Shown piece by piece: positions 23,994 through 63,016 of a DNA stretch of 64,000 nucleotides. The stretch covers positions 1 through 64,000 of the IMG/VR virus record IMGVR_UViG_3300035494_000060. One strand, written 5' to 3'. Position numbers and translations under genes: made by a program. The notes beneath the pieces were generated by a model. That model saw only the letters and a list, made by a program, of their open reading frames with translations, was not told where the DNA came from and searched no databases. The first letter of the stretch is position 1, and every line of letters begins with the position of its first letter. Source of the DNA: a virus.

Positions 23994-24400
23994 GACGCTC
24001 CCTCCTTCCGCAATCCAAGTTCACGCCCGACTTGCTCCAGGTGGTCGAAGAAGGGCTTCGAGCGCTCCGCGTCTATAAAGGCACACAGGTGTGGCAGTTC
24101 CCCCTCGCAGCCCATCCGGGCCACGTAGCGGGCCCATTCGGCCTGCACGTCCGGGCGGCTGAAGTTCTCCAGCATCCAGGTCAGGCGCCCGTCCATCCGG
24201 TGCACCTCGTTGTCCAGGCGTCGCTCTTGGTCCCGTGCAATTAAGTGCACGTTGCCTACCGTGTGCACGGTCTTGCAGCGTGGACAGGTCCCGTTCAGAT
24301 AGGCGTGCTCCCTGTCGAGGCCGTCCGCTCCGTCTCTGTGAAAGGTCAGGTACTGGTGGCGATCCACCTTGTGCCCAAACAGCATGCAGATCAGGTTCAT
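23987..24400 (-). CDS. hypothetical zinc-binding protein
   Basis: ORF-track 137 aa. MLFGHK...CPRC. ATGA overlap with the DHFR stop. Confidence 0.55.
   Translation of the reverse strand: MNLICMLFGHKVDRHQYLTFHRDGADGLDREHAYLNGTCPRCKTVHTVGNVHLIARDQERRLDNEVHRMDGRLTWMLENFSRPDVQAEWARYVARMGCEGELPHLCAFIDAERSKPFFDHLEQVGRELGLRKEGASC
24236..24249. repeat. 14-bp palindrome copy
   Basis: TGCAATTAAGTGCA inside 23987..24400, read as V-H-L-I-A. Confidence 0.9.
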
Positions 24401-24783
24401 TGAGGGTTGGCTCCTGGGGGGAAGAGGGGCGGCAACCAGGTGTCCGCCGGGCCATCATAGTTGACCCGGTTGATGTAGCAGCGGTCCACGTGGGGCATCC
24501 ACGTCGCGTAGGTCTTGGCCCCGCCGATGATGTAGAGGTCCCCGCCGCCGCGTTCGGCGTGCTCGGCCATGATCTTCTCCGGGGTGTCCCCCCGCCCCAT
24601 CACCCGCAGGTATCGCCCCGGCAGCGGGGGCAGCTTCTTCGCGGTGTTGTACCCCACCACCAGGGTGTGGCCCATGGTCACCTTTCGGAACCAGGCGAGG
24701 TCGTCCGGGTCGTGCCAGGGCAGCTCCCCATTGAGACCCAGCTGACCCCGCCGGCCTGCCGCCGCAATCATGATGACGGTCAT
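24397..24783 (-). CDS. dihydrofolate reductase (short form)
   Basis: IMIAAAGRRGQLGLNGELPWHDPDDLAWFRKVTMGHTLVVGYNT and LYIIGGAKTY. Confidence 0.8.
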   Translation of the reverse strand: MTVIMIAAAGRRGQLGLNGELPWHDPDDLAWFRKVTMGHTLVVGYNTAKKLPPLPGRYLRVMGRGDTPEKIMAEHAERGGGDLYIIGGAKTYATWMPHVDRCYINRVNYDGPADTWLPPLFPPGANPQ

Positions 24784-28498: not shown

Positions 28499-28927
28499 TC
28501 AGGCCTTCCCTGTCGAGCCCAGGCCGCCTTCACCGCGCGGGGTGTCGGACAGCTCCTCGACCTCCTCCAGCTCTTCGCTGAAGTAGTCGACGATGGTCAG
28601 CTGGGCAATGCGCTCGCCCGCTTCGATGGTGTAGGCCAGGGCGCCGGTGTTGTGCAGGATCGCCTTCACCTCGCCCCGGTAGTCGGAGTCGATGTTGCCG
28701 GGGGCATTGACGATGGTGATGCCATGCTTGTGCGCCAGCCCTGAGCGGGGGCAGAGCAGCCCCACCTTGCCCCCCGGGATTTCCCAGGCGAAGCCCGTGC
28801 CCAGGGTCATCCGCTCGCCGCCTTGCAGGGTGTAGCCCTCCACGGTGCGCAGGTCGTAGCCGGCGGCGTGGGCGCTGGCGCGGGAGGGAAGGGGCAGGTC
28901 ATGGCTGCCGATACGCTTGATCTTCAT
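28499..28927 (-). CDS. dut: dUTP diphosphatase (trimeric dUTPase)
   Basis: ORF 28499..28951, start reset to ATG 28927 after AGGAG. AAGYDL, PRSGLAHKHGI, GNIDSDYRGEV, RIAQL. Confidence 0.9.
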   Translation of the reverse strand: MKIKRIGSHDLPLPSRASAHAAGYDLRTVEGYTLQGGERMTLGTGFAWEIPGGKVGLLCPRSGLAHKHGITIVNAPGNIDSDYRGEVKAILHNTGALAYTIEAGERIAQLTIVDYFSEELEEVEELSDTPRGEGGLGSTGKA

Positions 28928-28947
28928 GGTGTCTCCTCGATGGTTGT

Positions 28948-29250
28948 TCAAATGGCCCGTCCACCACGCTGGTGGTAGGCCAACAGGCGGGCCGCAGTCT
29001 CCTTGACCCAGGCGTCTGCCGGCAAGTGGTAGCCGGTGGAGCCGTCGAAGTCCTTGAAGGCCTCGTCATAGAAGCCAATCTCGCACCAGCCCCATTTGGC
29101 CAGATCGTTGGCCCACTCCTGCCAGCGGTCATCACTGACGATGGCCTCGTCCAGGTGGTAGTAGAGGTAGGAGTGGATCAGCATCTGTGACCGGCGGCGC
29201 TTGATCAGCTCGGGGGTCACTCGCTCCTTTCGCTTGATGGTGACCGCCAT
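28948..29250 (-). CDS. hypothetical protein with MAVTIKRK N-terminus
   Basis: ORF-track 100 aa. Confidence 0.6.
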   Translation of the reverse strand: MAVTIKRKERVTPELIKRRRSQMLIHSYLYYHLDEAIVSDDRWQEWANDLAKWGWCEIGFYDEAFKDFDGSTGYHLPADAWVKETAARLLAYHQRGGRAI

Positions 29251-35619: not shown

Positions 35620-35648
35620 ATTCTCGCAACCCCCCTCCCGTTCGTCAA
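35620..35648 (-). promoter_or_regulatory. conserved sigma70-like promoter P19
   Basis: TTGACG-N17-GAGAAT. A palindrome lies 8 bp upstream. Confidence 0.7.
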
Positions 35649-35670: not shown

Positions 35671-35673
35671 CAG

Positions 35674-35700
35674 AAAAAAGCCCCTGCTGGAGGGGCTTCT
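35674..35700 (-). terminator. intrinsic terminator after the packaging/deacetylase operon
   Basis: Minus strand AGCCCCT-CCAGC-AGGGGCT followed by TTTTTTC. Flanked on both sides by palindrome copies. Confidence 0.7.
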
Positions 35701-35714: not shown

Positions 35715-36392
35715 TCAGGCGCGGAGGCGGATGACGTGGAGCAGCTCGGCATACTCACAGGCGGACTCGACCCCACGCAGGCGCGCCAGGGCGTCGGCGG
35801 CGTAGGTGCTGATCAGGTCCTCGGGTCCGCGCATCTGCGAGTGGTGCTGGTTCAGGGCCTCACGCTTGAGGTCCATCTGCTCGCTGATGTCGACGTACAT
35901 CCCGCCACGCCCCACGGTGAACTCCGCGCCCGGGCCCCAGCCGGTGGCCGGGTACTCGTAGGCCAGGACCTTCTCCACGTAGCGGGTGGCGGCACGCGGG
36001 CGGCAGGCGGCCATGGCGGCCCGGTGGGTGACCTCGTGGTCCTGGTGGGCAGAGGGCAGGGGCAGCAGTATCTCGCGGGGCTTGAGGTCCGCGATGGCGC
36101 CCTCGATCTTGCCGATCACCTCCTTGAGCGGGAGGGTGTCGAGCATGGTGTCCTTGTTCACGAAGCCATAGTGCACGCCATAGGCCCCCAGGACCTTGGC
36201 CGCCGCGTCTGCCTCCTCCAGGCGCACATGCCACCGCACGGTGTGGCCGGTGTCGAGGTGGGTGATGTCGCCCAAGGCCATGATCAGCACGTGCACCTCG
36301 GCGCCCTGCTGAGCGCGCTTGGCCATGTAGCCGCCACAGCCCAGCTCGGCGTCGTCAGAGTGGGGGGCAATCACCAGAATACGGTCAGGCAT
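35715..36392 (-). CDS. PIG-L/LmbE-family N-acetylglucosaminyl deacetylase
   Basis: ILVIAPHSDDAELGCGG and SAHQDHEVTH motifs. Confidence 0.8.
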   Translation of the reverse strand: MPDRILVIAPHSDDAELGCGGYMAKRAQQGAEVHVLIMALGDITHLDTGHTVRWHVRLEEADAAAKVLGAYGVHYGFVNKDTMLDTLPLKEVIGKIEGAIADLKPREILLPLPSAHQDHEVTHRAAMAACRPRAATRYVEKVLAYEYPATGWGPGAEFTVGRGGMYVDISEQMDLKREALNQHHSQMRGPEDLISTYAADALARLRGVESACEYAELLHVIRLRA

Positions 36393-38295
36393 CGGCCTGT
36401 TCTCCTTTGGTCTTGTTGGCGTCCGCTTTCTTCGGCTCTCGCACGGACGGGGGAATGTTGACGGGGGAAATGTCGTGCTCCAGCCAGATCGACATCTGCT
36501 GGGTCAGGCCCACCACCACGCCGGCCAGGGCGTCTGCACAGTCCTTGGAGCCGGTGGAGGGGTGGTCGATCTTGCTCTTCTTCGGGTCATACTCCACGGA
36601 CAGCAGCTCGCGGCGCAGGCGGGGGTGCTCGGGCAGGCGCAGGCGCCCGTCATAGATCGCCGCCTTCAGCAGGGCGTAAGGGGTCAGGTTGGTATCCATC
36701 GAGCGCATGCCGGTGATGAAGCCTTGCTGGCGCAGGGTCTGGAGCGAGTCCACCGACTGGAAGCTGTCGAAGCTGACCCACTTGATGTTCAGGCCCATGC
36801 CGCGCAGCTTATAGAGCATTTCACGGATGCGGTAGAAGAGGATTTCACCGCCCTGAGGTGGCGCCACTTCCAGGGTGAAGTCGGCGGTGATCTCCGGCCA
36901 TGTCTCGATGCAGTCGCCACGGTCGATGTTCTTGAAGCCTGACACGTGGCCGCAGGCTATCCCGGTGCTGTCTCCGCTGACCGAGAGGTCGATGTGGACC
37001 CAGCGCGGCTTGTGGCCGTCGACGATGCGGTTCTTGAAGGCCTTGATCTTGTAGGCCTGGAAGTCGGTCATCACGTCCGACAGCACGCTCAGGTAGTCTG
37101 GCCGCATGCAGCGGGCCAGGGCCTCGGTGTCCAGAATGTACGGGTGCTTGGCCAGGGTCGACACACCGGCGATCTCCCGCAGGGCATTGGTGATGTCCTT
37201 CTGGAACTCGGTCTTGTACTCCACGGGGATCGGCATCACCAGGGCGCGGTCCTCCGCCGTCAGCCCCGCCAGCGACTCCAGCACACGGGGCTTGCGGAAC
37301 TCGTCCCCGATGAACACGAGGAACGTGTCATCCGAGTAGGAGCCCTTGGGCTTCACCTCCCAGGCGCGCTTGTCGTAGATGAAGATGTTGGTGGAGCCGC
37401 GCTCCGCGATCTGCTGCTTCGACTCCTCTTCCTTGATGTCGGTGAACTGGCCCGGGAAGCGCTTGGACGACACGAGGCACAGCATGCCGTAGGTCTTGCC
37501 CCCCTTGATGAAGCGCGACTTGCGCCGGCGGGCGATGGAGTTGTAGAGGGCCCAGGCCTGGTCATAGGAGCCGCCGTCCACGGAGGCCTTCGACTTCTCG
37601 ATCACCGCCATGTAGTTCACTTCGTCGAGGATGCCGCCCATCACGTTCTGGCCGATGGCCGCCGTCTCCTGGCCGCTGAGGGGCAGCACCTCGATCCGGT
37701 TGGGGAAGACCAGCTTCGACTCGATGTCCTTGTCAAACGGCCAGACGTCCTTGAAGTAGTGGCTGCTCTCCATCAGCGAGCGGAAGCGGTTGTACTCCAG
37801 GGCCTTGGCGTGGGTGGCGCTGAGGGACTGGAACACGTAGAGGATTTCCGAGGCGCTGTCCAGGGAGAAGAACTTGTGGGGGTCCCGCATGCAACTGAGG
37901 ATGTACAGCTGGTAGGCGATGGCGTAGTGGGCTGCCGTGGTCTTGCCCGAGCCAATGCCGCCGGTGAACACGGCCTCGATGTACTTGCCGCTGGCCAGTT
38001 CCTCCAGCTCCTCCATGATCTTCGGGTAGACCGTGCCCTTCTTGTCCAGGAAGTAGGGGTCTTCGATGAACGTGCGGATGTCGACCGGCGTGTGCTTGTA
38101 CACGGTCATGTCCGCCATCCGCCGCATGTCCCCCGAGGCCAGGGAGCCCAGCAGGTTGCGCAGCCAGTGCTCGCGGGCCGCTGGGTCGCTGATGCCTTGG
38201 GCAATGGCTTCGATGCTCGGCCACTTCGGCCCCAGGACCTTCTGGAGCGTTGCAATCAATTGCACGGGGGTGAGGCGGGCCAGCGCGTCAGTCAT
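36385..38295 (-). CDS. terL: terminase large subunit
   Basis: ORF 36385..38310, start reset to ATG 38295. Walker A GGIGSGKT, Walker B GGILDEVNY. Nuclease-domain acidic residues in HIDLSVSGDSTGIACG and GSKDCADALAG. Confidence 0.85.
   Translation of the reverse strand: MTDALARLTPVQLIATLQKVLGPKWPSIEAIAQGISDPAAREHWLRNLLGSLASGDMRRMADMTVYKHTPVDIRTFIEDPYFLDKKGTVYPKIMEELEELASGKYIEAVFTGGIGSGKTTAAHYAIAYQLYILSCMRDPHKFFSLDSASEILYVFQSLSATHAKALEYNRFRSLMESSHYFKDVWPFDKDIESKLVFPNRIEVLPLSGQETAAIGQNVMGGILDEVNYMAVIEKSKASVDGGSYDQAWALYNSIARRRKSRFIKGGKTYGMLCLVSSKRFPGQFTDIKEEESKQQIAERGSTNIFIYDKRAWEVKPKGSYSDDTFLVFIGDEFRKPRVLESLAGLTAEDRALVMPIPVEYKTEFQKDITNALREIAGVSTLAKHPYILDTEALARCMRPDYLSVLSDVMTDFQAYKIKAFKNRIVDGHKPRWVHIDLSVSGDSTGIACGHVSGFKNIDRGDCIETWPEITADFTLEVAPPQGGEILFYRIREMLYKLRGMGLNIKWVSFDSFQSVDSLQTLRQQGFITGMRSMDTNLTPYALLKAAIYDGRLRLPEHPRLRRELLSVEYDPKKSKIDHPSTGSKDCADALAGVVVGLTQQMSIWLEHDISPVNIPPSVREPKKADANKTKGEQADA
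38251..38264. repeat. 14-bp palindrome copy
   Basis: TGCAATCAATTGCA (perfect arms) in terL codons 11-15, read as V-Q-L-I-A. Confidence 0.9.
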
Positions 38296-38965
38296 TGGCC
38301 ACCTCCCCATCGATCACGTCGCCCAGCCCCAGCTCCATCAGGGCTTGCTGGGTGGCCATGGCCAGCTGCTGGTTCACGGTTCTGGAGTCTTCCACGTACT
38401 TGGCCCCATCGGTGTCTCTGAGGTGTGCCGTCATATCGAACTTGCGCGACACGCGGCGGAGCAGGCCGGTCTCCATCTGGAGGCGGGCCAGTTCGGACAG
38501 GGTGTCCTTGTACAGGCGGATGTCAGCCGAGAGGCTGGTGATCAGGGTGGGCAGTGACTGCTCGCGCACCAGCATCTTGGAGACCCTGCCCTTCTGCGCC
38601 ATGCACAGCTGTTGCAGCTCCAGCATGACGTCGAACTTCTCCTCCAGGTCGGCCAGGATGATCTTGCGCCGCCCATCATCGAGGGTCTCGCTGTACACCG
38701 CCAGCCGGGTGGCGAGTTCCTTGTCCTTGTAGCGCTGGAGCTGGCGGGACAGGGTGAGCTGCTGGATGTCCTGGAACAGCCCCCAGTCGTCCTGGATGAT
38801 GGCGGCCACCTTGAGGCAGGCGTCACCTTTGATCAGCATCTGCTCCACCGCAGCCAGTCGCTCATGCCCCAGCCCCTTGATCCGCTCAAAGGGCTTACGA
38901 CTTGGGTTGCGCTTCTTGGTGCCCTTCTTGGGCCCCGGCTTTTTCCGGGCAGGCGTGGTGGTCAT
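38288..38965 (-). CDS. putative terminase small subunit
   Basis: Lies immediately upstream of, and overlaps, terL. Basic N-terminus followed by an HTH-like segment. The call rests on position and composition. Confidence 0.5.
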   Translation of the reverse strand: MTTTPARKKPGPKKGTKKRNPSRKPFERIKGLGHERLAAVEQMLIKGDACLKVAAIIQDDWGLFQDIQQLTLSRQLQRYKDKELATRLAVYSETLDDGRRKIILADLEEKFDVMLELQQLCMAQKGRVSKMLVREQSLPTLITSLSADIRLYKDTLSELARLQMETGLLRRVSRKFDMTAHLRDTDGAKYVEDSRTVNQQLAMATQQALMELGLGDVIDGEVAND

Positions 38966-38974
38966 CTTGGCCCC

Positions 38975-39799
38975 TTAGTTCAAGAAGTCGAGCGTGGGGA
39001 CGTCAGCGGTGAAGGTGCCTTCCACGTCCGGGCACTCGGCCAGCAGCGCCGCCACGGTCTCCTCGTCCAGGGATTCCAGCAGCTTGTGCATCAGGTGGTC
39101 CATCGACTTGTTGGCCGCCTTGGTCTGTGCAGCTAATTGCAAAAAGGTCTTCTTCTGGCCCGTCTGCATGCGCAGCCACACCGACTCCTTGCCACCGAAG
39201 TCCACGATCATGTAGCCGTGCGGCAGGGTGTCTCCGTGGGTGGTGAAGAGGTAGTTCAGCACCTTGGCCAGGTCATCCATGGTGCGAATCTCTTTGGCCG
39301 CGTCCTTGAAGGCCTGCTTCATGTCCTTGGGCAGGGACTTCTCGGTCGCCTTGATCAGCTTCTTGAACTCGGCCTCGTCGGTGAAACCGAACAGCTCGGC
39401 GGCCACGTCATCGGCGTACTTCTCGCTCAGGGAGTTGTACAGGGCCATGAACTTATCGGCGTTCATCTGGCCGTGAATGATGTTGTGACGGACCACCTGG
39501 AACTTCTCGGCGTCCTCGTCGAACTCGGGGTCGCTGATCACGGTGGCGGGGATGGTGTCGAAGCCCAGCAGCTTGGCGACCTCCAGGCGGTGGTGACCGC
39601 CCACTACGCGGTAGCGCCCCTTCTTGCTGGGGTGGGGCCGCACGAGGATCGGGTCGGTGATCCCCACGCGCTCCACGTTGTCATACAGCATGTTGAACTG
39701 GGCCTCGGACATTTCGTTCGGGTTCAGCTCGTTGTTGTCCAGCAGCTCGACATCAATGTCCAGGCGGTTCAGCTTCTTGGTCTTTTCTACGGCGCTCAT
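38975..39799 (-). CDS. ParB/Srx-fold N-terminal domain protein
   Basis: LNPNEMSEAQFNMLYDNVERVGITDPILVRP...YRVVGGHHRLEVAKLLG. ATGA overlap with the upstream gene. Confidence 0.75.
   Translation of the reverse strand: MSAVEKTKKLNRLDIDVELLDNNELNPNEMSEAQFNMLYDNVERVGITDPILVRPHPSKKGRYRVVGGHHRLEVAKLLGFDTIPATVISDPEFDEDAEKFQVVRHNIIHGQMNADKFMALYNSLSEKYADDVAAELFGFTDEAEFKKLIKATEKSLPKDMKQAFKDAAKEIRTMDDLAKVLNYLFTTHGDTLPHGYMIVDFGGKESVWLRMQTGQKKTFLQLAAQTKAANKSMDHLMHKLLESLDEETVAALLAECPDVEGTFTADVPTLDFLN
39128..39141. repeat. 14-bp palindrome copy
   Basis: TGCAGCTAATTGCA inside the ParB-like gene, read as L-Q-L-A-A. Confidence 0.9.
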
Positions 39800-41310
39800 T
39801 CGGCGTCCCCTTGTGCAATTGGTTGCAATACGCCGACCTGAGGTCCGGCATCCCTGACATTGTGGTGTGCAATTAGCTGCAATCTGAAGGTGTGCCAGTC
39901 GGTGATCCAGACCGAACGGAAGGCCTCGCGCTGGTTGTCCACCAACTTCTGCCCGAACGTGCGGATGTCCGGCTCACCGTCGACCATGCGTTGCAGCAGC
40001 GACAGCAGGGCCTCCGGCTGCGGCTGCAAGTAGGTGGCGGCCCGGCGGACCATTTCCTGCTCCTTGCCCAGGGCCTTCCACTCTTCGAACTCCTCGACCC
40101 ACTGCGCCAGCACCAGCTCCACGACCAGCGGGGTCCAGGTGTCGTTGCGCGATTGCAGCAGGGGCAGGAACTTCTCCCGCTGCCAGAGGACAAACTTCTT
40201 GTAGTGGGTGGCGTAGTCCTCATAGAACGCCCGGATCACTCCGTAGGCCTCGGTCGGGGTCTTGATGTAGAAGGGGTATTCGTCCCCCAGGGTGGCGCGG
40301 GCCCAGTCGCAATCGAGCACGGCCACCGGCAGCCCGAGGATCAGCGGCTCGACCAACGACAGGCTGTAGTCCTCCTCGTTGGAGAGGAACAAGCCCACGT
40401 CGCTCTCCTCGCGCACGATGCGCCAGAACTCCTCGCGCGGGGCCGGGTGGAACTCGATGAAGTCAGGCGGGTTCATGCCCTGACCCAGCCCCTTGGAGGC
40501 CGTGGTCATCATGCAGCGAATCTTGGTCTCTTCCTTGTTGCGCATGACCCAGTGTTTGGTCATCACGTCCCAAATGTCCTCGATGCGGTGGCCCCACACC
40601 ATGCGGCCCGAGAACGAAATGGTGAAGGGCTTCTCCCGCTTGATCACCTTCTCGACCACCGCCTTGGTCTTCGGCTGCACCTCGTCCACCTGGATCGGGG
40701 ACGACTCCACCAACACGGATTGCAGGCGACGGAGGAAGGCGGCACTGAAGTGGTCCCGAGCGATCTTGAGCATGTGGCGCTTCTGCCAGAAGGCGCAGAT
40801 GGCCACCAGGTCGGACTGGTAGTAGCCCAGGAGCGTCTGCTGATCGGAGACCTGCCCCGGGGCGATGGCCACCGCTGATTTGTAGGACATCATCGGCATG
40901 TCCTCCAGCAGCACAATCTTCTTCGCCCACCGCATGCCCTCGGCGCCCGGCTTGCAGCAGTTCATTCTGATCAGGGGGACCAACGCTGACTTGTTGGTGA
41001 CCAGGATGTCCCAGTCCCAATACTCGCCATCAATGGCATAGACCATTTCCAGTTCACGCGGCAGGCGACTGTACTCCCGGTAGCGATCCAGGATGCCTGG
41101 GGCCGGCGTGTACACGAACTGGATGCGCTCCACATGGGGCAGTGACTTCAGCCACTCCATGCACTCCTCGGGGATGTCGTCCGGGATCAGCCAGTAGGCG
41201 TACAGGTCTGGATGCTTGGGGGCTAGGTAGCTCCATATCTTCGCGTACTTGGAGGCTGAGGCGCAGCGGCTTGGAAAGGTCGTATAGATCGGGTCCAACA
41301 GCATTTTCAT
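39796..41310 (-). CDS. putative GT-B-fold glycosyltransferase (504 aa)
   Basis: C-terminal half GLFLSNEEDYSLSLVEPLILGLPVAVL resembles the GT1/GT4 E-x7-E region. Strong AAGGAGGG RBS. Confidence 0.5.
   Translation of the reverse strand: MKMLLDPIYTTFPSRCASASKYAKIWSYLAPKHPDLYAYWLIPDDIPEECMEWLKSLPHVERIQFVYTPAPGILDRYREYSRLPRELEMVYAIDGEYWDWDILVTNKSALVPLIRMNCCKPGAEGMRWAKKIVLLEDMPMMSYKSAVAIAPGQVSDQQTLLGYYQSDLVAICAFWQKRHMLKIARDHFSAAFLRRLQSVLVESSPIQVDEVQPKTKAVVEKVIKREKPFTISFSGRMVWGHRIEDIWDVMTKHWVMRNKEETKIRCMMTTASKGLGQGMNPPDFIEFHPAPREEFWRIVREESDVGLFLSNEEDYSLSLVEPLILGLPVAVLDCDWARATLGDEYPFYIKTPTEAYGVIRAFYEDYATHYKKFVLWQREKFLPLLQSRNDTWTPLVVELVLAQWVEEFEEWKALGKEQEMVRRAATYLQPQPEALLSLLQRMVDGEPDIRTFGQKLVDNQREAFRSVWITDWHTFRLQLIAHHNVRDAGPQVGVLQPIAQGDAE
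39814..39827. repeat. 14-bp palindrome copy
   Basis: TGCAATTGGTTGCA at the glycosyltransferase 3' end, 15 bp upstream of the ParB-like start. Confidence 0.9.
39868..39881. repeat. 14-bp palindrome copy
   Basis: TGCAATTAGCTGCA inside the glycosyltransferase gene, read as L-Q-L-I-A. Confidence 0.9.
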
Positions 41311-41351
41311 GTTGTCATTCCCTCCTTGTCAGTGTTGGTGTGGTGTCGCGC

Positions 41352-41381
41352 ATCTTACAGGTCGACTTCCTGTGCAATCAA
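41352..41381 (-). promoter_or_regulatory. candidate promoter of the glycosyltransferase-ParB-terS-terL operon
   Basis: TTGATT-N18-TAAGAT in the 204-bp non-coding gap. The -35 lies inside a near-palindrome copy. It differs from the P1-P25 family. Confidence 0.35.
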
Positions 41382-41386
41382 TTACA
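41373..41386. repeat. 14-bp palindrome, one-mismatch copy
   Basis: TGCAATCAATTACA overlapping the candidate -35. Confidence 0.55.
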
Positions 41387-41460
41387 AGTCTCTTCCCTAT
41401 GGTAATGACGTTCTTCTCCTCTCTCTTGTGTGTCTCTGTGACATGGGTTCTTTCCCCCCA

Positions 41461-41496
41461 CAAATGGAAAGCCCCCGGTGGTGTTCCGAGGGCTTC
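41461..41496 (-). terminator. candidate intrinsic terminator after the WbqC-like gene
   Basis: Minus strand AAGCCCTCGG-AACACCA-CCGGGGGCTT followed by a weak T tract, TCCATTTG. Confidence 0.4.
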
Positions 41497-41514
41497 TTGT
41501 GGTTCCGGGGGTAG

Positions 41515-42297
41515 TTAAGGTTCGTGGGTCAGGGGCCCCCATTCATAGACGGTCTCGGGTGTGACTTCCTCAGTGGATTCCCCCCAGGTGGGTGTGAGTA
41601 GTTCCCGCGTCTTCTTGGCCCCGATGGTCATCAGGGGATCAAGGATGGAGGTCATGCCATTGAGGTTCAGGGTTCCCGCCACGGTCTCGTAGCTGTCGGG
41701 CATCTTGTAGTTCTGGATGTGGAGTTCGATGCCCTTCTCCTTGAAGGCGGGCCGCCGGATGTAGTTGGTCATGGCCGCGCCGCCTCCCAGGTAGTCGGTG
41801 CCTCCCACGGCTTCCACCATCTTCGCTACCCACTCACTGGCATCCCATTCGGGTTGGCGGTCCCCGAGCAGAGCCCAGGCGTCCACGACTACCGCTTCGA
41901 TCCCGCACAGCTTGTTGGCCCAGTCCATGGTCGCGCCGGCGAAGACGGACAGGATCGGGGCCTCGCGTGCAATTAGCTGCAATCGTTCCAGCAGCTCCTC
42001 GCCGTGGTCCTTGTAGCCGGGGCACTTCCCGTAGTTGGCCTTCAGGGTCCCCTCAAACTTCTTGAGCCAGCGCATGGGCTGATCCAGCTCGATCTGGTTG
42101 AGCGGCCTGAAGTCCCGGTTCTTCAGCGGGACACTGAGCTTGGCGGGCCCCTGCTTGCTGAAGATGTCAGCGCGGGAGTGGTGGCCGAACTTGCTGTACT
42201 GGGCTTCCCCCATCAGCACGATGGCATCCACCAGGCGGAAGCGGTGCATCATGTAACAAGCCGGGAATAATAAAGTCTGGTTGCAGGTGACTTTCAA
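41515..42297 (-). CDS. WbqC-like family protein
   Basis: ORF-track 260 aa with TTG start. N-terminal FPACYMMHRFRLVDAIVLMGEAQYSKFGHHSRADI...LSVPLKN...W..KFEGTLKANYGKCPGY matches the remembered WbqC pattern. Confidence 0.55.
   Translation of the reverse strand: MKVTCNQTLLFPACYMMHRFRLVDAIVLMGEAQYSKFGHHSRADIFSKQGPAKLSVPLKNRDFRPLNQIELDQPMRWLKKFEGTLKANYGKCPGYKDHGEELLERLQLIAREAPILSVFAGATMDWANKLCGIEAVVVDAWALLGDRQPEWDASEWVAKMVEAVGGTDYLGGGAAMTNYIRRPAFKEKGIELHIQNYKMPDSYETVAGTLNLNGMTSILDPLMTIGAKKTRELLTPTWGESTEEVTPETVYEWGPLTHEP
41968..41981. repeat. 14-bp palindrome copy
   Basis: TGCAATTAGCTGCA inside the WbqC-like gene, read as L-Q-L-I-A. Confidence 0.9.
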
Positions 42298-42806
42298 TCT
42301 TCAATCTCCAGATGGGCCCACTTCCTGCCGGCCTTGATGTTGTAGGTGTAGCCCAAACTTATCCCGTATTGGGCGGCTAGAGCTTTAGGGTTCCCGCCGG
42401 CCAGCAGCGCCTTTTTCAGGGCCCTGGCTTGTTCTTCGGTCAGTTTGGCGTGTGGGTTGGCCTCACCAGGGTTCGAGTGATTCCTGCCCTTCTGGTGCAT
42501 GTCACGCATGTTGTCCAGCTGAGACCCAGCGAACAGGTGATCAGGTCGGGCACACGCGGGGTTGTCACAGGTATGGCAGACATGCAGCCCCTCGGGGATC
42601 GGCCCTTTGTGGGCCTCAAACATCAGACGATGCACGTAGATCATCTGGCCCGCGTCCGGGCTGTATATCATCCCGTAGCCTGCCGAAGACTTCCCATAGG
42701 GCCACTCCCAACAGCCCTCAGCGGGTTGTGGGAGGCGCCCCATCACGCGCTCTAGTGAGAGCTTATCCATAGGGCAGCAGGAGGGTCTGGTTGCAGGTGA
42801 CTTTCA
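42275..42806 (-). mobile_element. free-standing HNH homing-endonuclease insertion bounded by a 22-bp direct repeat
   Basis: GTCTGGTTGCAGGTGACTTTCA occurs at 42275..42296 and at 42785..42806. The repeat encodes the first 8 codons (MKVTCNQT) of the WbqC-like gene. GC looks locally lower by eye. Confidence 0.7.
42294..42770 (-). CDS. HNH homing endonuclease (HNH_3-type) with a C-terminal HTH
   Basis: CWEWPYGKSSAGYGMIY...YVHRLMFEAHKGPIPEGLHVCHTCDNPACARPDHLFAGSQLDNMRDM. Confidence 0.85.
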   Translation of the reverse strand: MDKLSLERVMGRLPQPAEGCWEWPYGKSSAGYGMIYSPDAGQMIYVHRLMFEAHKGPIPEGLHVCHTCDNPACARPDHLFAGSQLDNMRDMHQKGRNHSNPGEANPHAKLTEEQARALKKALLAGGNPKALAAQYGISLGYTYNIKAGRKWAHLEIED

Positions 42807-42807
42807 T
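42763..42807 (-). pseudogene. 14-codon remnant of the original WbqC-like 5' end (MKVTCNQTLLLPYG)
   Basis: Its ATG 42807 overlaps the methyltransferase TGA (ATGA). Its TAA stop lies 8 nt inside the HNH ORF. Confidence 0.55.
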
Positions 42808-43406
42808 AGCGGCTTACTCGGAATCAGCAGGAGGCGGTGCTTGTCCCCCGGCACCTGGGCGGCGATGCACTCGGACAGGGGGCAGCCAAAGGCTTCTTCG
42901 ATCTCCTCGTCCGTGTAGGAGCGGAACATGCCGTCATACTCGGGGGCGGGGTAGTAGGCCAGGGCGATGTAGCAGCCGGCCAGCTGGCGCAGTTCAGCGG
43001 CAAACCCCTTCAGGCCCCCCTCTGGCAGGGTCGACACCACGCCCACCGCTACAGCGACGTCATAGACGTTCTGCTCGTCGCGGATAAGGTCGCCCATCGT
43101 GCGGCACTCGATGCGGGCCTCCGGGTATTTGGACCGGCCTTCGTCTGCGATCCAGCGGATGGCGTCGATGCCGTGGTAGTCCGCCAGCGGCCTCGGGAAG
43201 TGGATGCTCAGGTCACCATAGCCACAGCCCACATCCAGAACATCGCTAGGGTACTCGCCCATCCGACCGATGATCATCAGTGCAATCAGTTGCAATCGCC
43301 GGGCGGGTAGGTCGGTGTTGGGCGACAGCAGGCCTTTCTGCTCACCCTTGTGGGCCTCCGCCTGCTGGTACATGGCGGCGTACTTTGGATCAATGGGTTG
43401 GGTCAT
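42804..43406 (-). CDS. class I SAM-dependent methyltransferase (small-molecule type)
   Basis: ORF 42804..43433, start reset to ATG 43406 (ATGA overlap). Motif I VLDVGCGYGDL. No DNA-methyltransferase DPPY or PC motifs seen. Confidence 0.75.
   Translation of the reverse strand: MTQPIDPKYAAMYQQAEAHKGEQKGLLSPNTDLPARRLQLIALMIIGRMGEYPSDVLDVGCGYGDLSIHFPRPLADYHGIDAIRWIADEGRSKYPEARIECRTMGDLIRDEQNVYDVAVAVGVVSTLPEGGLKGFAAELRQLAGCYIALAYYPAPEYDGMFRSYTDEEIEEAFGCPLSECIAAQVPGDKHRLLLIPSKPL
43281..43294. repeat. 14-bp palindrome copy
   Basis: TGCAATCAGTTGCA inside the methyltransferase gene, read as L-Q-L-I-A. Confidence 0.9.
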
Positions 43407-44446
43407 GGGTAGCTCCAGAAGGTGTTGGGCCATTGGTCATCGGGGTGCAGGCGCCCGAAGTTGCGGTGGGCAAGGCACATGCCCCACATGGCCCGGATGG
43501 TGCCGGCGAATCGCTCGTCATCGCCGTCCGTGTGGACTCCATCAGCAAAGTAGCTGGGGAAGTGTTTCTCGCTTGGGGTGTCCCAGTATTGGATGGCCTT
43601 GGCGATCAGGGGCTTCACCTCGGCCAGGGTGATCTTCGGCTCCATGGCCTGTAGTTCGTCAGAGCCGACCGGCTGGAACAGGCGAATCAGGGCTTGGCCG
43701 GTGTAGTTCCCGTCTGCTGACAGGTCCTTGAGGTTGTCCCGGTAGACCGCCAGGGTCCGCAGGGCGTCCTCCTTGCCCAGTTCGGTGGCCAGGGTGGTGA
43801 GTTCCTGGCACATGCGTGCCGCGTTCACCTTGCCCGCGTACAGGGCCTCCCAGGCGGCCACCGCCGTATCCATGTCGCCCGAGCGCACCGCCTCGGCCAT
43901 TTCGAGGTATTTCTCGTCCTCGGTGCGGCAGGCAAACACCTTGTGGTGGTTCAGGGCATTGCAGCGGCGGAAGGCCCGGATGTATTCGACCCCGCCCTCG
44001 TCGGCGTACCAGTTCGGGGTGCGGCAGAGGCGCATGACTTGCGCGCAGAGGTTGACCAGGGTGATGTTGGCGTAGTCCCGGCGCCATGCCGAGGTGCGCT
44101 CCATGGTGTACAGGGAAATGTTGTCCTCGCCGGCCATGATCATCACACGGCGTATCAGGCGAAACTTCTGGTCGGGGATGCGCCAGAGGTAGACCGCGTA
44201 TTTCACGGCCTCGTATTCCCAGCGTAGGCGCTGGCTCTTGATCAGCCCGGACATGGCCCGCCCGGGGGTTACCTTTCTGACTTTATCGCTCACTACGTGG
44301 CCCCTCATGTGTTTGCATGGTGTCTTCCGCTTCTTGAAGGCGGGGCAGGTGCAGGTCTTGGCCGCGATGTCGACCGTGTAGAAGACCCCAGGCTCGCTGA
44401 AGCTCTCCACTTGGATGGCGTTGCCGATCAGGTCCAACTGCTGCAT
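43403..44446 (-). CDS. SWIM zinc-finger protein (347 aa)
   Basis: ORF 43403..44551, start reset to ATG 44446, downstream of P20. CTCPAFKKRKTPCKH fits the CxC-Xn-CxH pattern. Confidence 0.6.
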   Translation of the reverse strand: MQQLDLIGNAIQVESFSEPGVFYTVDIAAKTCTCPAFKKRKTPCKHMRGHVVSDKVRKVTPGRAMSGLIKSQRLRWEYEAVKYAVYLWRIPDQKFRLIRRVMIMAGEDNISLYTMERTSAWRRDYANITLVNLCAQVMRLCRTPNWYADEGGVEYIRAFRRCNALNHHKVFACRTEDEKYLEMAEAVRSGDMDTAVAAWEALYAGKVNAARMCQELTTLATELGKEDALRTLAVYRDNLKDLSADGNYTGQALIRLFQPVGSDELQAMEPKITLAEVKPLIAKAIQYWDTPSEKHFPSYFADGVHTDGDDERFAGTIRAMWGMCLAHRNFGRLHPDDQWPNTFWSYP

Positions 44447-44474: not shown

Positions 44475-44503
44475 ATTCTCCCACCCCCACCTATGTTTGT
44501 CAA
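44475..44503 (-). promoter_or_regulatory. conserved sigma70-like promoter P20
   Basis: TTGACA-N17-GAGAAT. A terminator lies just upstream. Confidence 0.7.
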
Positions 44504-44513
44504 ACGGTGGCCC

Positions 44514-44543
44514 ATAAAAAAGCCCCCTGGGGGAAGGGGGCTA
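44514..44543 (-). terminator. intrinsic terminator
   Basis: Minus strand AGCCCCCT-TCCC-CAGGGGGCT followed by TTTTTTA. Confidence 0.7.
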
Positions 44544-44562: not shown

Positions 44563-45429
44563 TTACATGGTCACTTCGAGGTCCACGCCAGGGAAGCAGG
44601 TCTCGAAGATTTCCAGCACCTTTTCGACACCGGCGGCTTTCATCAGTTCCGCCAGGGAGGGCTGCTTGGTCTTGTTGCTGCCGCCGGTCGCGTAGGACTG
44701 GCAGATGTGCTCCAGGGCCACCGCGTCGTACTCGGTGCCGTAGTCTTCCTTCGCCTTGTCGACGGTGGCTCGGATGACTTCCTTCTGGTCGGTGTGAACC
44801 TTGAAGGTCAGGGTGGTGATCGGGGAGCTGGGGGCCTCCGGCATTTCTGGAGCCGTGCCAGGAGTCTTCAGCGACTTGATGTACTCGATCAGCTCCAGGA
44901 CGGTCATGGTCTGAGCCTTCTCGACCAGGGCGTCCACGTTGTCGTTGTTCAGGATCGGGGACAGTTCCTTGAGCTTGGTCCAGCCCAGGCCCTGCACCTT
45001 CTCCCAGGCCACGCCCGACTCCACCAGATCGTTGTAAATCTGGATCAAGTACATCGCCTTGCGGTATTGCAGGCCGTACTCGGCATTGATGAACGCCTTG
45101 AAGCTATCGTGGCCGTGGCCTTCCCAGTAGCTCTTGGTCTGGATCAGTGCCAGGACGCCACCCAACTTGAAGTAGGTCTCGTCGACCGACTCCAGCAGGT
45201 CCTTGGCCGAGCTGATCGCCGCGTCCTCAGCCATGTTCTCGATTTCAGAGACAATGTTGACGATGACGTCCGTCTCTGCCGTGGCCTTGGCTTTCGCGGT
45301 GGCCTTCTTGGCCGCAGCCGGCTTCTTCTTCACGGCAGTGGTGGTGCCCGCTTCGGACTCAACCGCTGCTGCTTCGGTGGTGCCAACTGCTTCTTCTGCT
45401 GCTTCGGGTTTCTTCTTGGAAATTGCCAT
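44563..45429 (-). CDS. hypothetical protein with MAISKKK N-terminus and a Lys/Ala-rich tract
   Basis: ORF-track 288 aa. Lies downstream of P21. No family recognised. Confidence 0.65.
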   Translation of the reverse strand: MAISKKKPEAAEEAVGTTEAAAVESEAGTTTAVKKKPAAAKKATAKAKATAETDVIVNIVSEIENMAEDAAISSAKDLLESVDETYFKLGGVLALIQTKSYWEGHGHDSFKAFINAEYGLQYRKAMYLIQIYNDLVESGVAWEKVQGLGWTKLKELSPILNNDNVDALVEKAQTMTVLELIEYIKSLKTPGTAPEMPEAPSSPITTLTFKVHTDQKEVIRATVDKAKEDYGTEYDAVALEHICQSYATGGSNKTKQPSLAELMKAAGVEKVLEIFETCFPGVDLEVTM

Positions 45430-46068: not shown

Positions 46069-46991
46069 TAGGCGGGCTCCAGGTTCTTGAGCTTGATGAC
46101 TGTGCCCGGGTCGTACTTGCCGCTGAAGCAAGCCTTCACCGAAGAGCACCCCTGAGCCCGCTTGCAGAGGACGTTGGGGCAAATGCCGCTGGGTATGGTG
46201 CCCGTCTCGCGGAAGAGCTTCAAGGCCCGCGCCTTGTTCATGTAGACCCCGGTGGCGGTGTCATCCCGAACCACCGAGAACTCCTTGAAGGGGCTGAAGG
46301 CGGTGTCCGGGTGCTTGAACTTCATGCCGTCCGTCTTCACCCCGAAGCCCTTCATCATGTACAGCACCCGGGCGCGCTCGGTGTTGATGTGGCCGCGCAT
46401 GGGGTGGTCGCTGTCCTCGATCAGGCGGAGGTACAGGTTCGTCCGCAGCCGGTGCTCGGGCTTCGGGGCCATCAGGGTCTTGAAGTCATCCGCCTTGATC
46501 GACTTCAGCTCCACCACTTCCAGAGGCCCGGTATTGAGGTCGACCAACAGGTCTATCCCGCCAGAGGCCCCGGAGGTCTTGCTGATGAAGCGCACCTCCT
46601 CATAGCGGAAGGCGTCCTCCGCGCCGCAGCTGGAACACCAGCCCGGGCGCTTCTGGAACGTGTGCAATTGATTGCAGCGAACGCAGGTCCAATCCCCCAC
46701 GGCAATCGGAAGCGCCCACTTGTTGCAGAGCAGCTCAGCCAGTGAGTTGCCCATGTCGAAGGTGTAGCGCAGGGCCGTGCCTACGGCCTTGGGTTTGCGG
46801 GTGTCCGGGAACAGGTCCGCCAGGGCGTGCTCCCGGGGGCAGTAGGGCGTCTCCTCGTTGGTTATGTCTGAGGCATGGATGCGGGTCGCAGGGCGGGGCG
46901 GCTCGTAGGCCGCCATGTTGGCGTGTAGGGCGTGGATCAGCTCCGTCCCCACGGGCACGGCATTGAGCTTGACCTTCTGCACGAACTTCAC
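46068..46991 (-). CDS. PD-(D/E)XK (Cas4/RecB-like) exonuclease with Cys clusters
   Basis: GIDLLVD...LEVVELKSIK core. N-terminal YCPRE, C-terminal CPNVLCKRAQGC, and an inserted CVRC...CSSCG ribbon. Confidence 0.7.
   Translation of the reverse strand: MKFVQKVKLNAVPVGTELIHALHANMAAYEPPRPATRIHASDITNEETPYCPREHALADLFPDTRKPKAVGTALRYTFDMGNSLAELLCNKWALPIAVGDWTCVRCNQLHTFQKRPGWCSSCGAEDAFRYEEVRFISKTSGASGGIDLLVDLNTGPLEVVELKSIKADDFKTLMAPKPEHRLRTNLYLRLIEDSDHPMRGHINTERARVLYMMKGFGVKTDGMKFKHPDTAFSPFKEFSVVRDDTATGVYMNKARALKLFRETGTIPSGICPNVLCKRAQGCSSVKACFSGKYDPGTVIKLKNLEPA
46663..46676. repeat. 14-bp palindrome copy
   Basis: TGCAATTGATTGCA (perfect arms) inside the nuclease gene, read as C-N-Q-L-H. Confidence 0.9.
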
Positions 46992-47389
46992 TGGGCACCC
47001 CCTGTCAGGCGCAGGAAGTCAGCCTCGGGGATGGCGACCCAGGCGCCTTCCCGGCGGACCACCCCGGATTTGTCCGTGAACAGCAGCTGGAGTGCCGGGA
47101 CCTGGTTGAGAGAATTGGCCTCGTGGCTGATCTTCAGCAGCCACTCGTGCTTGACGCTCAGGCTGTCCTTGATGGTCTGCTTGTGCTCCAGGCGGAAGGC
47201 GAGGGCGGGGGACAGGAACACCCCATCCCCCTTGTCCCCATCGGTGGCGCCGGAGTTGGCGGTGGCCTTGGCGCCGATCCTGGCCATGGTACGGCTCTCG
47301 GTGTACTTGCCCAGGCAGTCGCCAGCCCCGAGCTTGCCCTTCCTGGCCACGGTCTTGCCCCTGAGGGTGGTGGGCTTGAGTGCCGACAT
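46988..47389 (-). CDS. hypothetical protein (possible small PD-(D/E)XK-type nuclease)
   Basis: ORF-track 133 aa. GATDGDKGD...RLEHKQT is weakly nuclease-like. Confidence 0.45.
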   Translation of the reverse strand: MSALKPTTLRGKTVARKGKLGAGDCLGKYTESRTMARIGAKATANSGATDGDKGDGVFLSPALAFRLEHKQTIKDSLSVKHEWLLKISHEANSLNQVPALQLLFTDKSGVVRREGAWVAIPEADFLRLTGGAQ

Positions 47390-61936: not shown

Positions 61937-63016
61937 TCAGGCGCGTGGGAACGCTTCGGATGGTGGGGTGAAGGCTTCCGTATACCGGGCCACGCCCTTA
62001 GTCAAGCGGAACTCGTCTATATGCCCTGTCAGGTAGCGCATGTTACGGGGGTGCCCACCCAAAGATAGATGGGTCTGATCATAGGACACAGCATCGGCGG
62101 TAAGACTAGCCTCTAGTACACCATCCACGAACAGACGCACCACACCCCCGGTTCTGGTAACTGCTAAATGGTAGTACCGCCCGGTTTCCACCACAGTAGT
62201 CCCAGATAGAGTGCCCTCTTTGGCAATCGCAATCAGGGTCCCCGATACGGAGATAGCTAGTGTTAGGTCTAGCGTCAACAGAGTCCCATCTAATTCACCA
62301 TGCAGAGCCAGGATGACCCGGTTGAAGTCAGTGGTTGGGATGGTAGTGACATTAACGAAGACCTCAGCTGTGTAATCCCCCACCCCAAATGCCAGCGATG
62401 GATCAGAGCCTGTAATACGATCCCCACCACTGGCTGCGAATGCCCCTGCCCCGAACTTAGGAGTCGAAGACATCGAATTGGTGGACCCGGTTAGGGACGG
62501 CCCCACGTCAAGGGCTAGAGGTGTCGAGTCAAACCCGGCCAGCGCCACTACCGTGCTGAAAGGGGGCTCACCAACCGGCCCTGGCACGGGGTCTGGCGTG
62601 GATTCTGGGGTGCCCATCGTTAGGTAGTCCACTCGGATGCCAAGTCCGGTGCCCGCGCCTGCAATCAGTTGCACGTCGAAGGCGGTCTCAGCCGGAAACT
62701 CGGGCAGGGCGGACAGGTCCACGACCTCGCCCTCGGTAGCCCCAGCGGCCACGGTCGGATGCGCAATGCCATTGGCGGCCAAGATGTCGGCCCCGTCGAC
62801 GATCAGGGTGGCCTTGTATTCGGTGCTCACAGGTTCGTCAGCCCATACACGCAGGGCGGTCAGCTTGATCGGATGGCCAGTGATGCGAGGCACGTCACTC
62901 GTGAACGGTACTACCGCCCCATCCTGAAAGTAGTAGAAGGAGTCAGGCTTAGGGCCCGAGCTTCCACCCGAACCGCCGGAGCCGCCTGCTTGGCCCGGCC
63001 TGTAAATCTTTACCAT
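61937..63016 (-). CDS. tail fibre / receptor-binding protein with C-terminal LamG-like lectin domain
   Basis: Gly-rich N-terminus. C-terminal YYHLAVTRTGGVVRLFVDGV...LTGHIDEFRLTKGVARY fits the concanavalin/LamG pattern. Confidence 0.6.
   Translation of the reverse strand: MVKIYRPGQAGGSGGSGGSSGPKPDSFYYFQDGAVVPFTSDVPRITGHPIKLTALRVWADEPVSTEYKATLIVDGADILAANGIAHPTVAAGATEGEVVDLSALPEFPAETAFDVQLIAGAGTGLGIRVDYLTMGTPESTPDPVPGPVGEPPFSTVVALAGFDSTPLALDVGPSLTGSTNSMSSTPKFGAGAFAASGGDRITGSDPSLAFGVGDYTAEVFVNVTTIPTTDFNRVILALHGELDGTLLTLDLTLAISVSGTLIAIAKEGTLSGTTVVETGRYYHLAVTRTGGVVRLFVDGVLEASLTADAVSYDQTHLSLGGHPRNMRYLTGHIDEFRLTKGVARYTEAFTPPSEAFPRA
62660..62673. repeat. 14-bp palindrome copy
   Basis: TGCAATCAGTTGCA inside the tail-fibre gene, read as V-Q-L-I-A. 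Confidence 0.9.

Follow-up and report, generated by a model that had tools for sequence, protein, structure and literature searches.

The stretch of DNA considered here, called the window below, comprises 64,000 nt of a phage of about 85 kb (positions 1 to 64,000 of IMG/VR record IMGVR_UViG_3300035494_000060); some 21 kb of the phage lie beyond it. A block of nine genes occupies positions 35715 to 44446 on the minus strand. In the direction of transcription these encode a SWIM zinc-finger protein, a class I methyltransferase (MTase), an HNH endonuclease and a WbqC-like protein and, after a hairpin and a 204-nt spacer, a GT-B glycosyltransferase (GT), a ParB-like protein, the small and large terminase subunits (TerS and TerL) and a PIG-L/LmbE-family deacetylase. 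Four amino-sugar enzymes are transcribed here from the same promoter as the DNA-packaging genes, an arrangement that is common to a phage lineage and most likely places a sugar on the phage's own DNA. The first-pass annotation had described the block as carbohydrate-type modification genes interleaved with packaging genes. All nine genes lie where it had placed them, and Pfam agrees with its SWIM, MTase, HNH, WbqC, ParB and PIG-L assignments, but the carbohydrate description does not extend to the SWIM protein, which resembles the C-terminal region of RarA/MgsA and is not a carbohydrate enzyme.

The block is delimited by transcription signals. A phage promoter consensus, TTGAC(A/G)AAC-N13/14-G(C/G)GAGAAT, has 12 exact matches in the window, all on the minus strand, against 0.01 expected; the first bases of the -35 boxes are at 5100, 9973, 14031, 17021, 21489, 22068, 28222, 31079, 34861, 35648, 44503 and 58209. 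The block promoter (TTGACAAAC-N-GGGAGAAT, minus strand, 44475-44503) is an exact match to TTGACR-N16-18-GAGAAT. It follows an intrinsic terminator of the upstream replication/recombination unit (minus strand, ~44521-44542; an 8-bp GC-rich stem, then TTTTTT), which is located directly past the stop of gene 44563-45429. At the other end the block closes with a second intrinsic terminator (minus strand, ~35672-35700), a GAAGCCCCU...AGGGGCUUUUUU hairpin followed by U6, and the next promoter is at 35620-35648. Since no further copy of the consensus occurs within the block between 44475 and 35648, it is read most simply as one transcription unit in which the sugar genes share a single promoter with the terminase genes.

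The junctions are in keeping with this. The SWIM and MTase genes, like the GT and ParB genes, overlap by 4 nt (ATGA), and the HNH and WbqC-like genes overlap by 4 nt as TTGA, with TTG as the start codon. TerS and TerL overlap by 8 nt (ATGACTGA), as do TerL and PIG-L (ATGCCTGA), while gaps of 33, 9 and 204 nt separate MTase from HNH, ParB from TerS and WbqC from GT, respectively. ATGA overlaps had been proposed for several junctions, those of the terminase genes included; they are present at SWIM/MTase and GT/ParB, whereas the terminase junctions are of the longer kind. Co-transcription with TerS and TerL, as first suggested, is backed by the promoter and terminator map together with these overlaps. 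The 204-nt spacer (minus strand, 41311-41514) matched no Rfam family. It contains an 11-bp GC-rich hairpin (~41468-41496; -30.3 kcal/mol, z -3.47) followed by UUUCCAUUU, a weak U tract. The spacer sequence is poorly kept in relatives L006 and L015, where a hairpin is found at the same position. This hairpin after the WbqC-like gene is a possible attenuator that could reduce read-through into the GT gene.

The GT (minus strand, 39796-41310) was recognised as a GT4-like, probably retaining enzyme from its predicted structure. It has no Pfam or NCBIfam match, so that sequence does not place it in Glycos_transf_1 or CAZy GT4; among sequence families it matches only phrog_30253 (2e-7), and among its homologues only the distant P0015 carries PF00534. 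The AlphaFold model (pLDDT 88.4) has a GT-B fold with two Rossmann-like domains, the predicted nucleotide-sugar site being in the C-terminal one, and a C-terminal helical extension of about 140 aa. Foldseek neighbours in the Protein Data Bank (PDB) are MshA, BshA, LmbT, PglA and glycogen synthase (E ~1e-9 to 1e-10) and OtsA, with probability 1.00 for all of them and TM up to 0.69 on the target, and the model also matches phage GTs including that of SP-15. A PDB search with the single sequence gave no match. With a profile of 16 homologues, residues 294-348 align to the EX7E region of GT4 enzymes (8qoy, 3.2e-5); an EX7E-type motif is present in the C-terminal domain and E321 is invariant among the homologues. 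It had been foreseen that homology searches might reassign the GT and WbqC calls to unrelated folds; both calls survived. The GT diverges fast, being 25-30% identical where TerL is ~50% and ParB 45-50% identical, which fits changing donor sugars as far as can be judged from sequence.

The GT is predicted to be translationally coupled, through the ATGA overlap, to a ParB/Srx-fold protein of 274 aa (minus strand, 38975-39799; ParB_N 1.5e-9, phrog_26387 1.3e-85). Caulobacter ParB (6t1f) can be aligned with this protein, which has GGHHR where ParB has GERR and also matches phrog_498, a family annotated 'DNA methyltransferase'. A ParB-like gene adjoins TerS and TerL in all characterised relatives. 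TerL (minus strand, 36385-38295; phrog_2) is 50-57% identical by tblastn to annotated TerL proteins in 354 phage records. The putative TerS (minus strand, 38288-38965; 225 aa) is assigned by position and conserved synteny only; it has a basic N-terminal tail and a pI of 9.3, and its homologues in DLP_3 and RHph_TM16 are annotated hypothetical.

Three other genes of the block are likely to act on sugars. The PIG-L/LmbE-family zinc deacetylase (minus strand, 35715-36392) matches PF02585 at 9.5e-22 (78.3 bits vs a cutoff of 28.2) and has the metal-binding motifs APHSDDAE and HQDH. Its best NCBIfam match is BshB1 (5e-19), under the cutoff of that equivalog model, so that the protein is predicted not to be BshB itself. 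TerL and PIG-L are also adjacent in L006, L015, L016 and the P0011 locus. The WbqC-like protein (minus strand, 41515-42297; 260 aa) is a full-length match to PF08889 (6.5e-28, 98.5 bits vs a cutoff of 21.3). PDB searches, even with a profile, gave no relative, and we found no functional study of WbqC in the literature. WbqC, PIG-L and GT are again found together in L015, L023, L096 and the P0011 locus; in L028 WbqC accompanies PIG-L, and no GT of this family was detected. The S-adenosylmethionine (SAM)-dependent class I MTase (minus strand, 42804-43406; 200 aa) appears to be of the small-molecule type; it matches Methyltransf_25 (5.1e-7, 30.7 bits vs a cutoff of 27), Methyltransf_23, 12 and 11, and has DVGCGYG as motif I.

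The free-standing HNH endonuclease gene (minus strand, 42294-42770; HNH_3 4.3e-15, phrog_1872 7e-31) is evidently an insertion, as had been proposed: it is missing between MTase and WbqC in L006, L007 and L015, and the G+C content at third codon positions (GC3) is 0.71, against 0.80-0.92 in its neighbours.

The SWIM protein (minus strand, 43403-44446; 347 aa, Pfam SWIM 3.9e-7) combines a zinc finger with an all-helical region. HMMER identified 190 relatives across the library. When 55 homologues, nine of which carry the Pfam domain MgsA_C, were combined into a profile, it matched the C-terminal domains of RarA/MgsA in the PDB (3ctd 1e-7, 3pvs 1e-5); single-sequence PDB searches with this protein and with the WbqC-like protein gave no match. 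The AlphaFold model (pLDDT 94.4) is all alpha and has no whole-fold match in the PDB. It was also considered that the SWIM protein might be a hidden dioxygenase or sugar enzyme; this was rejected on account of the all-helical model, the RarA/MgsA C-terminal-like subdomain and the lack of a whole-fold match. The gene moves with WbqC and PIG-L in L015, L023 and L028, and weaker relatives sit in the ParB-methyltransferase loci L035 and L058. Its presence in both GT cassettes and ParB-MTase loci suggests a DNA-side or replisome-side helper of whichever modifying enzyme fills the slot.

The block belongs to a lineage of siphophages of 80-100 kb that includes Stenotrophomonas phages DLP_3 and DLP_5, Rhodobacter phage RcZahn, Rhizobium phage RHph_TM16, a Vibrio group and metagenomic contigs. 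The window TerL is 50-57% identical to those of DLP_3, DLP_5, Summit, the ~80-kb Vibrio siphophages, RHph_TM16 and RcZahn. A DNA-level search of the phage collection found no near-identical DNA to the block; the same protein set is found on metagenomic contigs of up to 85 kb. Cultured carriers of the GT family are DLP_3, DLP_5, Summit, RcZahn, RHph_TM16 and KarBoss. The GT-ParB-TerS-TerL core is common to all characterised relatives, and a variable cassette followed by this core is found in DLP_3, RHph_TM16, VH2_2019, RcZahn, L006-L008, L096 and the P0011 locus. Identical gene orders recur in relatives whose GT is only 50% identical, and therefore the arrangement is not due to chance.

The composition of the cassette ahead of the GT differs between members. 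The window, L006, L007 and L015 have the SWIM protein (SWIM-X), MTase and WbqC, with PIG-L relocated behind TerL; Vibrio VH2_2019 has PIG-L, two uncharacterised proteins, MTase and WbqC. In DLP_3, DLP_5, RcZahn and L088 the cassette consists of PIG-L, a WcaG-type dehydratase/epimerase, a WecE/DegT aminotransferase and MTase. RHph_TM16 has a dehydratase and an aminotransferase only, no PIG-L or MTase being annotated within the stretch fetched, while L008 and L045 have two epimerases/dehydratases and uncharacterised proteins. L096 combines an aminotransferase, a Polysacc_synt_2 dehydratase, two MTases, WbqC and PIG-L.

Eighty IMG/VR loci of the TerL clade were fetched with a TerL alignment search. 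Of these, 15 carry a member of the GT family, in every case no more than about 5 kb from TerL; 13 have it upstream of ParB and two directly downstream of TerL. A cassette that has relocated, as in L023 and L063, remains beside TerL, and the PIG-L/TerL and GT/ParB overlaps recur in several diverged relatives. By its distribution in these loci, the cassette is therefore an accessory module that is kept with the packaging genes.

Loci that lack the GT have other genes in the slot upstream of ParB. These are an N6/N4 DNA methylase in L037, DAM-like and GNAT-like proteins in L049 and L077, a fusion of ParB_N to a methyltransferase in L035 and a PAPS-reductase/DndC-like protein in L020. In L050 (1239-2708; also in L052), of a Vibrio-like subgroup, the slot upstream of ParB and TerL holds a 489-aa protein with a DruA (Druantia) domain. 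The large open reading frames (ORFs) upstream of ParB or TerL in such loci were considered as divergent GTs and rejected, hhalign probabilities being below 2% and Pfam assigning them to DNA methylase and further families. When 150 neighbouring ORFs were surveyed with Pfam, the result had methyltransferases, ParB_N, ThyX, DCD, PAPS reductase, PEP-CTERM and GNAT-phage-like proteins among the commonest; neither a TET/JBP nor a ThyA family is among the 25 families listed. HNH genes are also found at differing places around the terminase (L032, L051, L052 and L088), and the large terminase of L008 (12967-15276) carries an intein (PF14890).

It is proposed that the block constitutes a single middle or late operon of the siphophage in which an amino-sugar glycosylation module is expressed with the packaging proteins. 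The GT4-like enzyme would move an N-acetylhexosamine (HexNAc) to an acceptor hydroxyl, most simply N-acetylglucosamine (GlcNAc) from the host UDP-GlcNAc pool. PIG-L would then remove the acetyl group, leaving a free, positively charged amine, and the WbqC-like protein and the class I MTase would putatively tailor the sugar further. GT4 HexNAc transferases recur in partnership with a subsequently acting LmbE/PIG-L deacetylase, as in PIG-A/PIG-L, MshA/MshB, BshA/BshB and BtrM/BtrD; transfer followed by N-deacetylation is proposed because the structural neighbours of the GT and the BshB1-like PIG-L protein fit this pair. The acceptor would be the phage's own replicated DNA, on which the ParB/Srx-fold protein would bring or hold the GT, perhaps assisted by the SWIM/RarA-C-like protein, and the sugar would be attached shortly before TerS and TerL package the DNA or while they do so. 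The alternative cassettes of relatives, with dehydratase/epimerase-type enzymes, a DegT/WecE aminotransferase, MTase and PIG-L, would yield di-amino or N-methyl-amino deoxyhexoses, and we infer that a cationic sugar is the theme of the whole lineage. The phage might profit from neutralised charge when its DNA is packaged, from self-marking or from an anti-defence effect. A cationic sugar attached shortly ahead of packaging would make evident physical sense, if polyamine-type base modifications are taken as the analogy. We assign this explanation as a whole a probability of about 0.45.

Three features make DNA the preferred acceptor: the pairing of the GT with a ParB-like protein, the DNA methyltransferases that fill the slot in relatives lacking the GT, and the position of the block among replication genes. 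It is flanked on one side by replication/recombination genes and on the other by nucleotide and DNA genes (dUTPase, DHFR, RNase H and PolA). The literature offers precedents for the separate elements. Two reports (PMC13229309; bioRxiv 10.1101/2023.12.21.572611) describe phage DNA-hypermodification clusters in which GTs are found together with ParB and terminases, and show that a DNA-modifying dioxygenase is activated on double-stranded DNA by a phage ParB. In RB69 and Acinetobacter DLP3, phage-encoded NDP-sugar pathways supply DNA glycosylation (PMC13326640). The first-pass proposal of a glycosyl-type modification timed with packaging has gained from the comparative data as far as the linkage to packaging genes is concerned. 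The acceptor, for which virion proteins, packaged DNA and the host surface had been named, is narrowed, with DNA favoured and not proven; it is the likeliest single candidate, at somewhat less than even odds. Any such modification would more probably be partial or site-specific than replace a base completely.

Several observations weigh against DNA as the acceptor. Among the ~60 ORFs of the window that were scanned with Pfam (small ORFs called with a GC3 heuristic), and among precomputed Pfam matches, there is no ThyA homologue, ThyX, TET/JBP or DpdA. An E. coli ThyA probe had no match, either in the window or in those parts of the characterised relatives that were fetched; the probe was validated by a 41.5% full-length match in L063. 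This sole ThyA has the canonical D169, N177 and L143. To judge from these searches, the window encodes no recognisable enzyme that would make the acceptor hydroxyl; divergent or novel enzymes are possible. Moreover, the dUTPase and DHFR genes of the window (24397-24783 and 28499-28951 for DHFR and dUTPase) point to an ordinary thymidylate supply. The fold of the GT is uninformative as to the acceptor, the same fold being used to glycosylate proteins (SdgB-like chains are among the profile matches), lipids and small molecules. Nor do charge and pI give a useful signal for a DNA acceptor, as both the GT (pI 5.8) and ParB (pI 5.2) are acidic. The GT cassette is, in addition, accessory, with only the 15 carriers among 80 loci mentioned above.

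Palindrome counts belong with these points. Hexanucleotide palindromes have a mean observed/expected ratio of 0.45 in the window, vs 1.00 for other hexamers, and 30 of the 64 are absent (CCGCGG 0 vs 33.5 expected, CTGCAG 0 vs 23.4). Avoidance is similar in the DLP_3 genome (L095, L005, L002 and L004), where 25 of the 64 are absent and the avoided set is different; the mean ratio is 0.45-0.48 across both. This implies DNA that is exposed to type II restriction, unlike that of fully hypermodified phages. The DNA of Stenotrophomonas DLP3 has been reported to be resistant to 15 restriction enzymes (PMC7326821). The DLP_3 genome has no site for ten of the 15, and one site for XbaI; the informative enzymes reported not to cut are SmaI (68 sites), ClaI (18), EcoRI (7) and NdeI (4). 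The "restriction-resistant DNA" of DLP3 is therefore mostly explained by absent sites and lends weak support to a DNA modification. These counts correct the published inference, and the nature of any modification in DLP3 and DLP5 DNA matters since DLP3 is discussed as a therapeutic phage.

If DNA is nevertheless the acceptor, the modification could be of an undescribed kind, which we regard as doubtful. It would be a cationic amino sugar that a GT4-like enzyme, directed by a ParB/Srx-fold partner, places post-replicatively on an acceptor not produced through a ThyA homologue or TET/JBP chemistry, and it would serve packaging or self-recognition, not blanket restriction evasion. The sugar would be glucosamine-derived in the window and of the 2,4-diamino-trideoxyhexose type in DLP_3, RcZahn and L096. 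The acceptor might come from a module, conserved in the lineage, that comprises a truncated dikinase resembling pyruvate phosphate dikinase (PPDK), two Cys-phosphatases and an uncharacterised enzyme.

Alternatively, capsid, tail or fibre proteins may receive the amino sugar late in infection, the terminase linkage reflecting shared late timing only. Enzymes of the GT4 fold include protein O-GlcNAc transferases, to which the SdgB-type matches of the profile relate, and the closest viral structural neighbours of the GT outside the clade are GTs of ~500 aa from Arthrobacter phages. Freeman and colleagues reportedly found in 2023 that GTs of actinobacteriophages glycosylate virions. Giant viruses, as known from Mimivirus, encode viosamine and bacillosamine pathways for capsid fibrils. 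Both the failure to find a base-hydroxylating enzyme and the strong palindrome avoidance would be expected of virion-protein glycosylation. However, the cassette is not beside the structural genes, which begin only after PolA, nor is it among lysis genes; the partner to which the GT is coupled has a ParB fold; and the same slot is occupied in relatives by DNA methyltransferases. Virion proteins are, on balance, a less likely target than DNA but a serious rival to it.

We consider it less likely still that the region upstream of ParB-TerS-TerL is an accessory-gene hotspot with no functional tie to packaging, whose cargo makes a soluble amino-sugar conjugate, thiol or aminoglycoside-like, against host defences or competitors. 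The slot content is indeed highly variable (sugar cassettes, MTases, the DruA-like protein, PAPS reductase and HNH genes), the nearest structures MshA, BshA and LmbT act on small-molecule acceptors in pathways with LmbE/PIG-L partners, and the internal hairpin and 204-nt spacer part the tailoring genes from the GT. Yet the overlaps of PIG-L with TerL and of GT with ParB in several diverged relatives are hard to explain as neutral cargo, relocated cassettes stay beside TerL (L023 and L063), and neither an MshC/BshC-type ligase nor acceptor-synthesis genes were seen in the window.

A complete, T4-like protective hypermodification, with a sugar on every copy of one base and DNA immune to restriction, appears very improbable. 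It would agree with the reported resistance of DLP3 and DLP5 DNA to all enzymes tried (PMC7326821, PMC8228603), but most of the assay enzymes have no site in DLP_3, the palindrome avoidance in the window and DLP_3 genomes is strong and host-specific and therefore argues against such protection, and nucleotide-level pathways of known kinds were not found (the ThyA probe was negative, and the ThyA of L063 is canonical). Least probable of all is a change of lipopolysaccharide (LPS), O-antigen or another surface glycan that blocks superinfection or alters serotype, as the DLP3 authors proposed for their own GT and as would suit temperate phages causing lysogenic conversion such as DLP3 and DLP5 (PMC7326821, PMC8228603) and the O-antigen character of WbqC, DegT-type aminotransferases, 4,6-dehydratases and GT4 enzymes, given that the cassette lacks genes for a flippase, a polymerase or any membrane protein, shares a phage promoter and transcription unit with the terminase instead of having the form of a moron expressed in lysogeny, and is also present in Vibrio relatives described as lytic (PMC9413028).

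The remainder of the window, which has a G+C content of 63% and almost all of its genes on the minus strand, places the block in the genome. At its 5' end in the direction of transcription, ahead of the replication module, are genes for a concanavalin-A-like lectin-domain protein (61937-63016; Laminin_G_3 3.6e-15) and a phage lysozyme (59265-59774). The replication/recombination module that precedes the block encodes an AAA ATPase, a DnaB-like helicase, a primase, an SF2 helicase, RecA, a Holliday-junction resolvase (46988-47389, from its PHROG annotation), an exonuclease and, just downstream of the exonuclease gene, a RuvC protein called by Pfam. The module ends with a clade-conserved protein of 288 aa (44563-45429; phrog_17202 7e-80), just ahead of the variable modification slot. 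After the block come ~25 kb of small genes, including those for RNase H, dUTPase and DHFR, then those for the PPDK-like dikinase, the Cys-phosphatases and the family A DNA polymerase (PolA), and the start of the portal gene at the end of the window.

Downstream of most consensus promoters is a conserved leader in which ACATGGAGGG serves as ribosome-binding site. Six of the 12 promoters, those with -35 boxes at 14031, 17021, 22068, 28222, 34861 and 35648, have a palindromic, operator-like GTGCAATTAACTGCAC some 9-10 nt ahead of the box, and TGCAATTR occurs 36 times in the window against 2.06 expected. The promoters at 44503 (the block promoter) and 58209 are without this element and are located after terminators. 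The restriction of the element to some promoters suggests two promoter classes and a dimeric regulator.

The conserved module of PPDK-like dikinase, Cys-phosphatase(s) and uncharacterised enzyme lies near the window start (8076-9923, 6997-7407, 5781-6953 and 5097-5768). The dikinase, labelled an auxiliary 'pyruvate phosphate dikinase' in databases, is without the PEP/pyruvate domain; it matches PPDK residues 14-516 of 865 and has ~140 unmatched C-terminal residues. Relatives have two Cys-phosphatases, of which one was confirmed in the window (5097-5768, CIGGHGRTG). The uncharacterised enzyme of ~330-390 aa (5781-6953 in the window) has the invariant motifs TRExRH, GGYGGxPW, HNNGPIFNKG and LDVQRSGQ, and a profile search found no PDB relative. 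The pairing of a dikinase with dual-specificity phosphatases is reminiscent of the plant pair of glucan-water dikinase and SEX4/laforin, or else of a nucleotide pathway. DLP3 gp141, like the corresponding DLP3 and DLP5 records and phrog_17568, carries the label 'thymidylate synthase'. It was rejected as a ThyA homologue, the window homologue (5097-5768) having the CX5R phosphatase motif and PTP-type Pfam matches, and the annotation looks wrong.

Among the closest known systems are the clusters of 5mYOX (TET/JBP) dioxygenases, ParB and GT described by O'Toole et al. 2026 (PMC13229309) and Pyle et al. 2023 (bioRxiv 10.1101/2023.12.21.572611). As in the block, a GT there lies beside a ParB-fold protein and terminase genes, and sugar-tailoring enzymes (O-methyltransferases and epimerases) are nearby; the ParB partners a DNA-modifying enzyme and is not a partition protein. 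The block differs in that neither a TET/JBP dioxygenase nor a C5-methyltransferase was detected in the window and in that ParB is coupled to the GT itself; the ParB N-terminal domain is present, and its neighbours are the GT and TerS in place of a cognate 5mYOX. Neither the GT family of the block nor WbqC or PIG-L appears to have been characterised in these reports. Systems that glycosylate 5-hydroxycytosine (5hoC) or 5-hydroxymethylcytosine, with the T4 alpha/beta-GTs, RB69 and the arabinosyl-5hoC of Acinetobacter DLP3 (PMC13326640), likewise use phage GT-B enzymes. In the RB69-type systems (PMC13326640), phage nucleotide-sugar tailoring genes diversify the glycan between relatives, as they would in the lineage of the block. 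RB69/T4-type systems need a ThyA homologue to supply hydroxylated nucleotide ahead of replication, and the ThyA probe found none in the window. In relatives without the GT, ParB-domain DNA methyltransferases occupy the same genomic slot beside the terminase (the fusion of L035, and L037); unlike these, the block has a GT and sugar-tailoring enzymes instead of a methyltransferase, and its ParB is a separate protein.

The PIG-A/PIG-L, MshA/MshB, BshA/BshB and BtrM/BtrD pairs share with the block the GT fold, the deacetylase family and the implied free-amine glucosaminide chemistry. They differ from it in that the genes of the block stand in a phage packaging operon with no Cys ligase or other downstream thiol-pathway gene; for a mycothiol or bacillithiol pathway, the GT4 transferase and LmbE-type deacetylase are present and no MshC/BshC-type cysteine ligase was found in the window. 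Virion glycosylation by actinobacteriophages and giant viruses also employs viral GTs with amino-sugar and methyl tailoring enzymes, but there the genes are with or near structural genes, without coupling to ParB or terminase. The block, then, resembles the GT/ParB/terminase clusters and the RB69-type systems, but it departs from each in the defining feature, because no dioxygenase and no ThyA-type hydroxylase were found, and it is a member of no characterised pathway. If DNA is the target, the phage DNA glycans known so far would gain an amino-sugar branch whose ParB-fold helper acts on a glycosyltransferase instead of a dioxygenase, in a lineage without the two known routes to the acceptor hydroxyl.

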